From the NCBI GenBank assembly GCA_036498725.1, contig DASYEY010000126.1, positions 3,089 to 67,088 on the forward strand: a DNA stretch of 64,000 nucleotides. The letters are read 5' to 3'. The stretch comes from Verrucomicrobiia bacterium. Lineage in GTDB: Bacteria > Verrucomicrobiota > Verrucomicrobiia > Limisphaerales > UBA11358. The notes below the pieces were generated by a model. The model was not told the DNA's origin, ran no database searches, and saw nothing but the letters and a program-made list of their open reading frames with translations. The first letter of the stretch is position 1; each line of letters opens with the position of its first letter. Below are positions 2,449-35,948 of this stretch, in pieces. The position numbers and the translations under genes are program-made.

Positions 2449-5400
2449 ATGGACATGAAAAAATTATTTGCCGGAATGATCGTCTCCTTTCTGGCGGCGG
2501 CCGCTTTTGCCGCCACATGTGATCGGCCAGCGATTATTCCATTGCCGCAACAGTTGGACTTTCAAGCCGGCGCATTTCAAATGGGTTCGGGTACGGAAAT
2601 TTTCGCAGATTCCGGGTCGCTGCCCACGGCACAGCAGTTGGCGCGGCAACTTCGTCCGGCCACCGGCTATTCGTTCAAGGCCAGCCGCCAGATTGGAACG
2701 GAGCACGGGGTTGCGGGCGGCATCTGGCTCACGATCCAAAATGCCGATGCCAGTCTTGGCCGGGAAGGGTACGAGTTGATCGTCACGACCAATAATGTGG
2801 TCATCCGCGCCCCGACGACGACCGGCTTGTTCTACGGGGTGCAAACCTTGTTGCAATTATTGCCGCCGGCGATCTTTTCCACCAATCCGGTAACGCATGA
2901 AAGCTGGCAGATTCCCTGCGTACGGATCAAGGATTGGCCGCGTTTCCCGTGGCGCGGTCTGATGCTGGATGTCAGCCGCCATTTTTACAATAAAAGCGAC
3001 GTGGAAAAAATCCTGGACCTGATGGCGCTGCACAAATTGAACATGTTCCATTGGCACCTGGTGGATGATCAAGGCTGGCGGATCGAGATCAAAAAATATC
3101 CATTATTGACGCAAGTCGGTGCCTGGCGAAAACAAAGTGCCTTGGGCAAGGCCAGCGCGGAGACCTATGCCCATCCAGCTTGGGCCATGCCGTCTGCTGA
3201 CAAATTTGGCAGCGATGGGCGTTACGGCGGATTTTATACGCAGGATGACATTAGGGAAATTGTCGCCTATGCGGCTGCCCGCCATATCACGATTGTTCCT
3301 GAGATTGAAATGCCGGGTCATTCCTCGGCGGCGTTGTCGGCGTATCCACAATTCGGCGATAACGGATTGGGCACCAATCGTTCAGTCAGCCGTGGCATCT
3401 ATGATCCCGCCCATGCGGGGACGTTTCAATTCTTAGATGATGTCTTGACCGAGGTGTTTCAGTTATTTCCCGGCAAATATATCCATATCGGCGGCGACGA
3501 AGTTAAAAAAGATTTTTGGAAGAACGATCCGGAATGCCAGTTGCTCATGCGGCGCGAAGGGCTGAAGAACGAAGAGGAGTTGCAAAGCTGGTTTGTCCGG
3601 CGCATGGAGAAATTTGTGAATGCCCAGGGCAGGACGCTCATCGGCTGGAGCGAAATTCTCCAGGGCGGGCTGGCGCAAAATGCCGTGGTCATGGATTGGA
3701 TCGGTGGTGGCCGGGAGGCGGCCAGCCAGGGACACGATGTGGTGATGACGCCCAATGTTTATTGTTATCTCAATTATTATCAATCCACGAACCATGCCAC
3801 GGAACCGCGCGCGCAGGGCGGCTACATTCCTTTGCAAAAAATTTATGCGTTCGACCTAATCCCCACGAACCTGCCAACGCCGGCGCAATCTCATATTCTT
3901 GGGGCCCAAGGGAACCTGTGGACGGAATGGATCGCTTCGTTGCCCCATGCCGAATATATGCTTTTTCCCCGGGCTTGTGCCCTGGCCGAAGTCGTCTGGT
4001 CAGCCAAGGATGCCCGCGACTTGAATGATTTTGAACGACGACTCAAAACCGATGAAGCCCGGCTCGATCAGTTAGGAGTTAATTATCGTCGTGACCCTTC
4101 CGGGTCAACAGCGGTTGATCCAGACCGGATAACCACCGATTACATAGATGCGAAAATTTCAAGGAGCCATCCGGGATTCGATGGTTTATCCGTTGATAGT
4201 CTGGGCCAAAAACATTTCTCATTGATAACCATAAGACCGCCCGCAGGTACTTTCTCTCCGGTGCAGGTGGTTCAAAAAGGTTCGCAATGGGAATATCGTC
4301 GCCGAGGTGCCAATGACGCAAATCCCCCGTGTTGGATGATTAAAATCGAGACGAATGAAATTTGCCTGGAATCCCGCTGGTCGGCTGATGACCCGCCTGA
4401 GCCATTGGTTTTTGACGCTGATAACAGCCGCTGCCATGTCACCATGCTGGGTTTGATGACAACGAATGGTTCGATTCGACTGCCGGCACTCATGCACTTT
4501 CCCGATCAAGGCACCTTCAGGATTTCCACCGGGCCGGAAATGGATCAACCGCTCGGTTATGCGGCGGAAAAGCGGGATGTGAAAATTACTTTTCCAGCGG
4601 CGACACAGAATCATCCCGTGGTGACGTATCACTGCAAAGTGGTTTCAATTCATCCGAATATTCCAGGCATCGAAGGCGATGCGCGCTTCGATGGCTTCCG
4701 CCGCAATTGGCTGAATATTTTTCAACTCAGCCCGAGCTTCCGCACGCTGGCCAATCATGCCGCCAGTGACACGTGCGCCTTTTGTTACTATGAGTTTGCC
4801 GACCTGGCGGTCCAGACACCGTCATTGGCCGATGGGTTTACTGCCCTGGATATGGTTCGCCAGACATTGGATGCAGTTATCGCCGGCCGGGCCAAGGCTT
4901 ATGGCCTGCCGTCACGCAGTCGCATCAATGAATTCATGTCGGATACGATTCCCTCGCTTTTGATTGCTGCTGACGACTACGTCGAAGGCAGTAAAGATGA
5001 GACGTGGCTGGCCACGAACTACGACCAACTAAAAACCTGGACGGACACCATGCTGGCTACGGATCACGACGGCAATGGCCTCATTGAGTATAAGTTGAGC
5101 GGTAATTCGGGTTCCTGGCCGGCGCAGTTTGTGCTAAGGCCGGCCAACTGGTGGGACACGATTGGTTTTGGGCACGAAGACGCTTACGCCAATGCTCTGG
5201 CCTATCGGGCGTTGCTCGACATGGAACAATTATCAAGGCAAGCCAATCACCCTGAGGATGCGACGCGGTATCACGCCGCCGCAGATAAGTTGAAGGCGGC
5301 TTACTTCAAAACATTTTACAATCCAGCCACTGGCATTCTGGCTGGCTGGCGCAGCGCCGACGGCCAGTTGCACGACTATTATTTTTTGTGGGTCAATGGC

Positions 5401-35000: not shown

Positions 35001-35005
35001 CCACT

Positions 35006-35082
35006 GGAGCGCGGAGCATTGCTCCGCGTGTTCTCTTTGCAGTGCTGAGTAGAATTAGCGGAGCAGCAATGCTCCGCGCTCC
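35006..35082. repeat. REPIN-like inverted doublet of the REP palindrome GCGGAGCA(N)TGCTCCGC
   Basis: 'GGAGCGCGGAGCATTGCTCCGC' (35006-35027) and 'GCGGAGCAGCAATGCTCCGCGCTCC' (35058-35082). The asymmetric tails GGAGCGC/GCGCTCC are mutually complementary. The doublet lies between the thrS stop and the RAYT stop. Confidence 0.85.
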
Positions 35083-35083
35083 G

Positions 35084-35875
35084 TCAGCTTGGAAATTTTA
35101 ACTCCCATGTTTGTGGGTTGCGAAAGCGAGCGCTACTAAATGGCCAATCTTCAGGCGTATGGCAAAGTTTTGCCTTTATCGGATTATTTTCGATATAGCG
35201 CATAGCTTTCTGCGTTTGTTCTGAATCCCGCATATAGGTGTCCCAGTAGTCCATTTGCCAAAAATCACCAGTGCGTACCAGCAGCTTGTTCGCAGTGACG
35301 GCGGTAAAGGATTTCCAATTCTGAATTATCTTTAAAAGTGGCGTAGTGTTCACTTTGATCAACGCATGAACATGATTCGGCATCACGACCCAAGCTAGCA
35401 GATCAAACCGTTGGCCGTGATGAAAGCACATGGCTTTTTCCACTAGCGCAGCGATGTGCGGATTCCGGAGGAAACATTCGCCATGGCCTCGGTCGATGTA
35501 TTCCTCCAGTTTCCTGTGTTGTTCACGGGCGGCGTCATGACGGTGAGCAAGGCTGTTAATACGTTCGGGCGAAGCAATGCTTCGCGCTCCAGCTTGGGCT
35601 TCTTCACCCGGCGCAGCGGAACGCGGAGCATTGCTCCGCTCGGCGGCCAGCAAAGACTTCCACTCTCCACGCTGCGAAGCTGGCAAAGAATCCCATAGTC
35701 GAAACGTAACAAATTGAACCAAGCCGGGCTTGTCGCAATGTGGTAGATAGCCACGTTCATGCCAGCCTTTAAAATCTTGATTTTTTGCACCTGGTGGGAG
35801 TGGCACACTCCACGCTTGCTTTTCAGCGACGAGGCGGCGCAGGTGTTCGCGCTTGGATTGAGGCGGATGTTCCAT
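35084..35875 (-). CDS. REP-associated tyrosine transposase (RAYT; IS200/IS605-like Y1 HUH transposase)
   Basis: 'LVQFVTFRLWDSLP'. HUH motif in 'WVVMPNHVHALIKV'. Catalytic Tyr region 'KAMRYIENNPIKAKL'. Flanked on both sides by REP palindromes. ATG at 35875 ('MEHPPQSK') is preferred over the track's TTG at 35935, which lies inside a REP. Confidence 0.8.
   Translation of the reverse strand: MEHPPQSKREHLRRLVAEKQAWSVPLPPGAKNQDFKGWHERGYLPHCDKPGLVQFVTFRLWDSLPASQRGEWKSLLAAERSNAPRSAAPGEEAQAGARSIASPERINSLAHRHDAAREQHRKLEEYIDRGHGECFLRNPHIAALVEKAMCFHHGQRFDLLAWVVMPNHVHALIKVNTTPLLKIIQNWKSFTAVTANKLLVRTGDFWQMDYWDTYMRDSEQTQKAMRYIENNPIKAKLCHTPEDWPFSSARFRNPQTWELKFPS
35569..35639. repeat. REP palindrome doublet located inside the RAYT coding sequence
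   Basis: 'GCGAAGCAATGCTTCGCGCTCC' (35569-35590) and 'GGAACGCGGAGCATTGCTCCGC' (35617-35639). In frame, these encode '...ERSNAPRSAAPGEEAQAGARSIASPE...'. Confidence 0.8.
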
Positions 35876-35926
35876 GGGAGCGTAGAGCGTTACTCTATAT
35901 GATTCGATTGAATCACAAAGGGATTC

Positions 35927-35948
35927 GCGGAGCAATGCTCCGCGCTCC
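35927..35948. repeat. REP palindrome copy upstream of the RAYT gene
   Basis: 'GCGGAGCAATGCTCCGCGCTCC', 52 nt upstream of the RAYT ATG. Confidence 0.85.

Follow-up and report, generated by a model that had tools for sequence, protein, structure and literature searches.

In-frame insertions of REPs (repetitive extragenic palindromic sequences) are already known from the tnpA_REP genes of subclass 2.4 (Bertels group 4), which encode REP-associated tyrosine transposases (RAYTs). As described by Quentin et al. (2018, BMC Genomics 19:475; PMC6006769), these insertions generally lie between HuH and the Y motif (β3:αC), are frequent but not strictly defining for the subclass, and fall in a variable region placed away from the DNA-binding and catalytic sites. 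Intragenic REPs are also found in many genes of Opitutus terrae, including that of DNA ligase, and have been related to the RPE palindromic elements of Rickettsia (Di Nocera et al. 2013; PMC3733652). Here we describe a RAYT gene of a Verrucomicrobiia bacterium (assembly GCA_036498725.1, contig DASYEY010000126.1), which carries two copies of its own REP in frame; the window is the whole stretch of 64,000 nt that was analysed. The locus is a further example of the published phenomenon, which it extends to a further insertion site and to a new phylum. What it adds to the literature is the β1:αA position of the insert, its feet-inward geometry, its ancestry to a deep syntenic clade, and a quantitative measure of nucleotide-level constraint.

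The window contains five REP hairpins, all within positions 35006-35948, where they lie on both sides of and inside a RAYT gene on the minus strand (35084-35875; ATG start, 263 aa, apparently intact). Each hairpin consists of a foot, GGAG, a stem of 7-8 bp, GCGGAGC, and a loop of 3 nt. Intragenic REP 1 (35618-35639) has its foot on the plus strand, antisense to the gene; it reads GGAACGCGGAGCATTGCTCCGC on that strand and encodes RSNAPRS (aa 80-86). Intragenic REP 2 (35569-35590) has its foot on the minus strand, which is the sense strand, and reads GGAGCGCGAAGCATTGCTTCGC in the coding direction; it is a compensated A-T stem variant, and its product is GARSIAS (aa 96-102). The two are separated by a spacer of 27 nt (35591-35617, minus strand) encoding AAPGEEAQA. 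Both are in frame, and the segment that they encode, ERSNAPRSAAPGEEAQAGARSIASPE, corresponds to aa 79-104 of an intact open reading frame (ORF). An original prediction, made from the letters of the window, had described five palindromes with asymmetric tails and an in-frame doublet between the N-terminal strand motif and the HUH motif; all five were recovered at the positions it gave, and the doublet lies where it had been placed.

The segment was compared with the corresponding region in 80 loci from metagenomes, which encode relatives of 44-71% identity, and in five loci from a genome scan. It is 14-26 aa long where present and is missing from every relative at 54% identity or less; these proteins read EWEHLLKIEDDREKRTKLEEYLDRG, or in general form EWEHLL(K/A)IEDxRE(K/R)RxKLEEYLDRG, without interruption. 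All relatives at 57% identity or more have RS[DN]APRS...GA[RQ]SIA[SLP] at exactly that site, between strand β1 and helix αA. At the nucleotide level the conserved peptides are the REP in two orientations and in fixed reading frames. The alignment thus supports the suggestion that the segment of about 26 aa is an insertion, and the relatives at 54% identity or less carry no equivalent peptide at the same position. Among the 120 closest protein clusters, the hairpin-1 peptide is found in 98 and at least one peptide of the hairpin-2 type in 102; the gap between the two is bimodal in this set (2 or 11 residues). In homologues the spacer between the intragenic REPs is fast-evolving or absent (0-9 aa). 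The additional 14 aa that follow hairpin 2 (PERINSLAHRHDAA) were considered as a decayed third REP, an idea that was dropped when alignment showed them to be homologous to ...EARAQAA of the long-form relatives.

The conservation of the hairpins was analysed in 22 distinct genes of the clade, whose proteins are 75% identical on average outside the insert. At fourfold-degenerate third positions, identity reaches 96% within the hairpin codons, versus 47% elsewhere in the gene, and each of the eight degenerate (four- to sixfold) hairpin codons is spelled identically in at least 91% of the sequences, where about 60% is typical elsewhere. The 27-nt spacer has diverged freely in lineages whose hairpins are conserved. 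Hairpin 1 is nearly invariant across the clade at the nucleotide level. In hairpin 2, 93.6% of the cells are paired, both sides have changed in three of the seven pairs, and the covariation score was reached by none of 500 shuffles. Its stem codons occur as CGA..TCG, CAG..CTG, CGG..CCG and CAAAAC..GTTTCG, giving the peptides RSIAS, QSIAL, RSIAP and QNIVS, respectively; the compensated changes alter amino acids (R/S to Q/L, or SA to NV). A census of the peptides gives 66 RSIAS, 19 QSIAL and 11 RSIAP, a total of 96 that are compatible with pairing, versus about 17 that are discordant. The A-T stem variant makes up 13 of 21 intragenic hairpin-2 copies and only 8 of 322 dispersed copies, an excess that points to descent rather than to simple copying from the genomic pool. 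These data demonstrate that the hairpins are constrained as nucleic acid and not as peptide. The original prediction had offered, as an alternative to a tolerated insertion, that the element functions as a cis-regulatory structure: the DNA-level constraint on the hairpins is demonstrated, and a regulatory role is a candidate explanation for it.

The arrangement of the locus is conserved along with the insert. A cassette of five REPs recurs throughout the clade, with one copy upstream at -63 to -69 relative to the ATG, two within the gene, one at the stop codon and one, inverted, 40-90 nt beyond. The upstream copy is present at this distance in most homologous loci, the flanking cassette is found in about 25, and the proximal downstream foot lies 1-2 nt past the RAYT stop codon in about 16 (e.g. 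L096, L125, L126, L131, L132, L138 and L142). In about 25 loci of the clade the RAYT gene is convergent with thrS, and the ThrS proteins of the syntenic loci are 71-91% identical to the window protein (72-82% where most of the gene is present). This synteny indicates that descent has been vertical, with a fixed position next to thrS. The simplest reading of the sequences is that a single in-frame insertion occurred in the ancestor of the clade and was then inherited vertically. A recent insertion specific to the source genome was also considered, and is ruled out by the clade-wide conservation and the thrS synteny.

In related genomes the same REP also lies outside the RAYT genes. A scan for the exact foot-plus-hairpin, with one genome per species and results that are lower bounds, found it in at least 117 blocks of 8 kb from at least 53 assemblies, and as many as 20 or more cores within a single assembly. 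Among the relatives the palindrome is thus a dispersed one, as the original prediction had expected of a REP family. Among the matches listed, the REP-bearing blocks are almost all from Verrucomicrobiota of the Limisphaerales / subdivision 3 type, and only 9 of the 117 hold a RAYT homologue, which shows that the REP is truly dispersed. Also among the matches listed, 69 of 74 doublets of dispersed copies are of the (+,-) type, with the feet outward, and their core-to-core spacer has a mode of 20-21 nt; this (+,-) doublet is the REPIN (the REP doublet unit) of the family. The stems of 322 oriented dispersed copies comprise 256 canonical and 45 fully compensated ones (GCCGAGC, GCAGAGC, GCGAAGC), with few that are uncompensated. 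The REP has GGAG(C) as its foot, replaced in some copies by GGAA; this is not the GT[AG]G foot of REPs, although it is alike in position and length. The exact REP was also seen on contigs binned as Acidiferrales/Acidoferrum, Bifidobacteriaceae, Acetobacteraceae, Dongiaceae and Thermoleophilaceae (off-phylum binning in L001, L003, L034, L041, L046, L064, L083, L085, L090, L099 and L108); these are probably mis-binned Verrucomicrobiota rather than cases of transfer.

The intragenic pair differs from these doublets. It is inverted in the (-,+) sense relative to the gene, with the feet pointing inward and 0-27 nt between them, and is not a canonical REPIN, the dispersed doublets being (+,-) with a spacer of about 20 nt. 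The proposal that a REPIN had inserted into its own mobiliser and been tolerated consequently holds in essence, with a correction: the segment is an insertion relative to the homologues and is in frame, while the inserted pair lacks the REPIN geometry. At this locus, only the downstream pair (35006-35082) has that geometry, as had been predicted; in window coordinates it ends 1 nt before the RAYT stop.

We consider it probable, on the strength of these comparisons, that the intragenic pair descends from an ancestral in-frame insertion of REPs into their own RAYT gene, and that the hairpins have since been kept by a RAYT-linked constraint as part of a cis-acting cassette. Two of the five REPs, with their feet inward, would have entered the gene in frame in the ancestor from which a Limisphaerales-type clade of Verrucomicrobiota descends. 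The insertion site is a lineage-specific and probably unstructured extension between β1 and αA, away from the HUH/Tyr catalytic core, where the protein tolerates 14-26 extra residues. The insertion most likely arose because the RAYT prefers single-stranded DNA near its own gene, and a filter on survival would have let only in-frame copies in the permissive loop persist. Sister clades took the same path, using REP types of their own and another site in the gene. The position published for subclass 2.4, between HuH and FWQ, is the one used there: in-frame (+,-) REPINs, mostly of the gene's own REP type, occur at gene nt ~467-575 in relatives at 44-49% identity (L163, L167, L170, L171, L175, L176, L178, L179 and L191). 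The flanking REPs of these distant relatives differ from those of the window, with stems GCCGAGC, GCCGAAC/GCCGATC, or GCCGAGC with other loops, and a GGAG or GGAA foot. The independent insertions with matching REP types fit the view that a RAYT probably acts by preference close to its own gene. In L191 the intragenic type (GCCGATT/GCCGGTT) is unlike the flanking type (GCCGAGC-AAT). Since the insertion, the hairpins of the window's clade have stayed nearly constant while synonymous sites elsewhere in the gene became saturated; we attribute this constancy to a sequence-specific constraint, probably exerted through recognition by the RAYT itself. The intragenic hairpins would then be part of a conserved cis-acting cassette, together with the upstream REP and the one abutting the stop codon, and this cassette, we suggest more tentatively, probably restrains the expression or activity of the nuclease.

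Several observations weigh against this reading. One or both intragenic copies are degraded or lost in L137, L140, P0098, P0110 and P0116, and a third copy is present in L010, L120, L122, P0006, P0014 and P0047; with a copy number of 0-3 and a spacer of 0-9 aa, the element is dispensable in some lineages. The RAYTs of L142 and L148 (54% identical) have canonical REPs at -64 and +6, as in the clade, and no intragenic copy; they represent either the pre-insertion (sister) state or a precise loss, and in a neighbour-joining tree, itself weak, the L142 lineage without the insert falls near the base of the clade or inside it. The compensated variants of hairpin 2 also circulate in extragenic REPs and sometimes equal the flanking copies of the same locus (L125, L131, L132 and L141), so that exchange with the REP pool may have occurred. 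Template switching can, moreover, yield covariation in DNA palindromes without structural selection. In the source genome the REP was seen at the RAYT locus only, within the 64 kb that are visible. Finally, a strand test on the 322 oriented dispersed REPs (G.T 9 versus A.C 5) gave no usable strand signal and none that distinguishes RNA from DNA.

Some of these points are what would be expected if the intragenic REPs were functionless passengers, conserved only through continual renewal, the chief alternative explanation, which we regard as possible though improbable. New copies would be deposited by the RAYT beside old ones, intrastrand template switching would correct the arms, and short-patch conversion would draw on genomic copies; selection would merely purge the outcomes that break the frame. 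The variable copy number agrees with this, in particular the canonical G-variant third copies that stand beside older ones in the six homologues named above, as do the bimodal spacer length, the decay or loss of copies in some lineages, and the stem variants that at times match the flanking REPs of their own locus. In-frame REPINs in unrelated genes, moreover, indicate that such insertion is a general habit of the family (see also PMC3733652). Renewal does not readily explain, however, why hairpin 1 is fixed in position and invariant in sequence, rather than just palindromic, while synonymous sites are saturated, or why the A-T variant, just 2.5% of the dispersed pool, prevails in hairpin 2. 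No remnants of turnover were found in at least 11 short-form lineages. Tracts of homology of 22 nt are also short for RecA-dependent conversion.

In its most specific form, recognition by the RAYT would make the intragenic pair a selected cis element. The nuclease would bind the hairpins of its own gene or mRNA and so limit itself; alternatively, the pair would be a protected master template through which the specificity of the enzyme and the genomic REPs remain matched on long evolutionary timescales. Either role would be a tentative and rather unlikely refinement of the cassette model.

The hairpins might instead act in the mRNA, independently of the RAYT protein, through ribosome pausing, RNase entry or protection, or premature termination; together with the REP adjoining the stop codon they would keep the level of the nuclease low. 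We consider this doubtful. A sense RNA of 131 nt folds with the two REPs paired together (-58.5 kcal/mol, z = -2.46), T.G (U.G) pairs are seen on the sense strand of hairpin 1 in two lineages, and the REP foot found 1-2 nt past the stop codon in about 16 loci would also be suitably placed. In E. coli, expression is said to be lowered through ribosome stalling when a REP lies no more than about 15 nt from a stop codon (the finding is reportedly that of Liang, Rudd and Deutscher in 2015). Di Nocera et al. (PMC3733652) argue that many REPs act as RNA. On the other side, most uncompensated mismatches of hairpin 2 take the form A.C on the sense strand and would be unpaired in the mRNA, and the dispersed copies have no excess of G.T on either strand. 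The folding check that had been suggested gave a mixed result, as the z-score of the RNA is modest and the fold of the DNA is not significant (z = -0.98). No Rfam family was matched; the one hit of the search, to an miRNA, was meaningless (E = 0.33, far below gathering). RNA structure alone, furthermore, leaves unexplained why the exact REP sequence should be retained, as opposed to any stable stem.

Selection on the peptide RS[DN]APRS...GARSIAS as a protein linker or interaction motif, with the palindrome incidental, would account for its conservation in most of the 120 homologue clusters. The synonymous-site and covariation data effectively rule it out (96% versus 47% identity at synonymous positions; changes from RSIAS to QSIAL or QNIVS that follow base pairing and include a non-conservative S to L), and it is made more improbable still by the identity of the 22-nt sequence with a dispersed extragenic REP and by the dispensability of the segment in outgroups and some members of the clade.

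The identification of the gene itself rests on several lines of evidence. It encodes strand β1 as FVTFRL (aa 55-60; 35696-35713), the HUH motif as HVH (aa 168-170; 35366-35374), FWQ (aa 205-207; 35255-35263) and the catalytic tyrosine motif YIENNP (aa 227-232; 35180-35197), all on the minus strand; HVH and YIENNP are invariant among 35 homologues. The protein scores 97.1 bits with the NCBIfam model REP_Tyr_transpos (NF047646; curated cutoff 80) and 35.4 bits with Pfam Y1_Tnp (cutoff 23), and only 19.9 bits with the IS200 model (NF033573), which is under its cutoff of 55. A profile of the window protein and 34 homologues matched E. coli TnpA_REP (PDB ID: 4ER8, 4ER8_A) at E = 5.4e-11, from αA to the Tyr helix. 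The hallmarks on which the gene had first been called a RAYT were thereby confirmed, and it is assigned to the RAYT / TnpA_REP proteins of the HUH-Y1 nuclease family, with predicted nuclease activity. The motifs NHVH, FWQ and YIENNP agree, on comparison by inspection, with Table 1 for TnpA_Y1 subclass 2.4 (PMC6006769), and to that extent the RAYT is of the subclass 2.4 type. Because the alignment with 4ER8 begins only at helix αA (profile position 125), the ~75 residues between β1 and αA are taken as a lineage-specific extension, and it is inside this extension that the REP-encoded segment falls. In an AlphaFold2 model (alignment A1), aa 80-102 form a coil between two helices at low confidence (mean pLDDT 50); the model was too poor for a fold search and was used as weak support for the coil only. 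With one cognate REP upstream and an inverted pair downstream, the gene is flanked in the manner of a REPtron, and the locus can be described as one: a vertically inherited RAYT with five cognate REP copies. Near the start of the gene, in codons 4-13 (35837-35866), synonymous choice is unusually uniform throughout the clade (CCG 0.90, TCC 0.85, CGC 0.82 and 0.88), which hints at another nucleotide-level constraint close to the start codon. One homologue, L039 (CAWDIX010000002.1, a contig of 4.6 Mb), is split at about residue 161/162, just before HUH; its two pieces (2645-2950 and 4235-4678) lie on opposite strands, 1.3 kb apart and with REPs nearby, and it appears to be a rearranged or inactivated copy.

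The three flanking REPs complete the set of five. The distal downstream copy (D2, 35006-35027) has its foot on the plus strand and reads GGAGCGCGGAGCATTGCTCCGC, with foot GGAG(C) and stem-loop GCGGAGC-ATT-GCTCCGC. The proximal downstream copy (D1, 35058-35082) has its foot on the minus strand and a loop 3 nt longer than usual; the foot begins 1 nt past the RAYT stop codon. Together they form a (+,-) doublet, feet outward, between the convergent thrS and RAYT genes. The upstream copy (U, 35927-35948, minus strand) lies in the orientation of the gene, 51 nt before the ATG. The exact core GCGGAGC-N-GCTCCGC is present in four of the five copies, the one at 35569-35590 being the fully compensated variant GCGAAGC/GCTTCGC; each copy has the asymmetric foot GGAG(C) on one side, with GGAAC instead at 35618. 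A chance origin was ruled out by dinucleotide-preserving shuffles, which gave 0.00 matches to the core pattern compared with the four exact ones of the window. No further REP copies, with mismatches allowed, were found elsewhere in the 64 kb.

With GTTCTCTTTG behind it, the distal downstream REP was scored as intrinsic-terminator-like (35005-35040, plus strand) and stands 5-10 nt past the thrS stop (35000); with its T-rich run it looks like a terminator of thrS. A REP pair between two convergent genes may terminate or stabilise both transcripts. A promoter scan revealed no convincingly placed promoter for the RAYT gene, and this terminator-like REP on the thrS side was its only notable feature. 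The loop and 3' arm of a REP can also pass for a start codon with MLRAP or (M)LRES after it (35927-35943; U2 copies in L057, L120, L126 and L131), and for this reason the N-termini of RAYTs are sometimes extended into the upstream REP by gene callers and ORF lists. Such extensions begin at a TTG at 35935 here and as MLCAP/MLRTPF in P0005, P0006 and P0014. The longer ORF started by this TTG is regarded as an artefact of ORF listing, since the homologues begin at ME.PPQSK.

REPINs of the same family, of the (+,-) type, are also present in frame within other genes. A test based on the longest spanning ORF is noisy in GC-rich DNA, which has many spurious ORFs, and the Pfam-confirmed cases were kept: NAD-dependent DNA ligase (LigA) in two genomes, with the REPIN between the HhH and BRCT domains (L092, 3254-3312; L084, 3284-3342), methionyl-tRNA formyltransferase (Fmt) with a REPIN in the C-terminal domain (L007, 408-443), and an N6-adenine methylase (L055, 5723-5783). 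A further in-frame REPIN is found in a large FG-GAP/VCBS-like protein (L054, 5757-5809). The encoded peptides include ERGALLR...GGAMLRAP and RSAEHCSA...RSNAPRS. REP-encoded peptides such as RSDAPRS, GARSIAS, ERGALLR and GAMLRAP can be used as flags for repeat-derived segments in annotated proteins of Verrucomicrobiota.

Bacterial genome biology has yet to explain how RAYTs remain matched to their REP populations and how both endure over such long times. The locus and its roughly 100 homologues form a natural series in which a REP pair has been fixed in the gene of the enzyme itself for so long that synonymous sites elsewhere have become saturated. With hairpins that are intact and amino acids that have changed to keep the pairing, the choice between a functional cis element and a regenerated passenger becomes directly testable, and the conserved, compensated intragenic hairpins are a test case for the action of REPs near or inside RAYT genes as cis elements.

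Among known systems, the RPE elements of Rickettsia (reportedly described by Ogata et al. in 2000) resemble the present insert in that in-frame palindromic repeats add 20-30 residues at tolerated positions, as do the REPs of O. terrae. The decoration of DNA ligase in L092 and L084 is likewise paralleled in O. terrae (PMC3733652). In contrast with those cases, in which the host genes are unrelated, the host here is the presumed mobiliser itself, and conservation of the insert extends over a deep clade. The locus shares with IS200/IS605 elements a Y1 HUH enzyme and subterminal hairpins on both sides, U and D1 being oriented as the gene. Unlike them, it bears no sign of a unit that transposes, given its fixed position next to thrS, and its score with the IS200 model is under the cutoff.

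The E. coli REPtron and its TnpA_REP (PDB ID: 4ER8; Ton-Hoang 2012, Messing 2012) are similar in the HUH-Y1 fold, the single gene, the inverted REP pairs, and a REP in the form of a short hairpin that carries four nucleotides as a foot at its 5' side. Here, however, the foot reads GGAG(C) instead of GTAG, the stem has only 7-8 bp with a 3-nt loop, and the protein has an extra ~75 aa between β1 and αA as well as an N-terminal extension of ~50 aa; the E. coli gene also lacks an intragenic REP. With the REPIN-RAYT systems of Pseudomonas and enterobacteria (Bertels and Rainey 2011; PMC3116915) the locus has in common a vertically inherited and apparently single RAYT that persists for long in its lineage, and cognate REPs that are mostly inverted doublets of fixed spacing (the 69 of 74 given above); it departs from them in having, within coding sequence, a pair without REPIN geometry.

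The closest likeness is to subclass 2.4 of Quentin et al. (PMC6006769), with which the window gene shares the motifs NH[IFV]H, WQ and YIxNNP, REPs that flank the gene, REPs within the gene that do not break the frame, 'double-foot' REPs and a peripheral insert whose region is not expected to bear on catalysis. The published cases are mainly from Cyanobacteria and Bacteroidetes, whereas the present one is ancestral to a clade of Verrucomicrobiota; its insert lies upstream of HuH, at β1:αA, in a feet-inward arrangement, and is distinguished from those cases by strong constraint at synonymous sites and by compensated changes in the stem.

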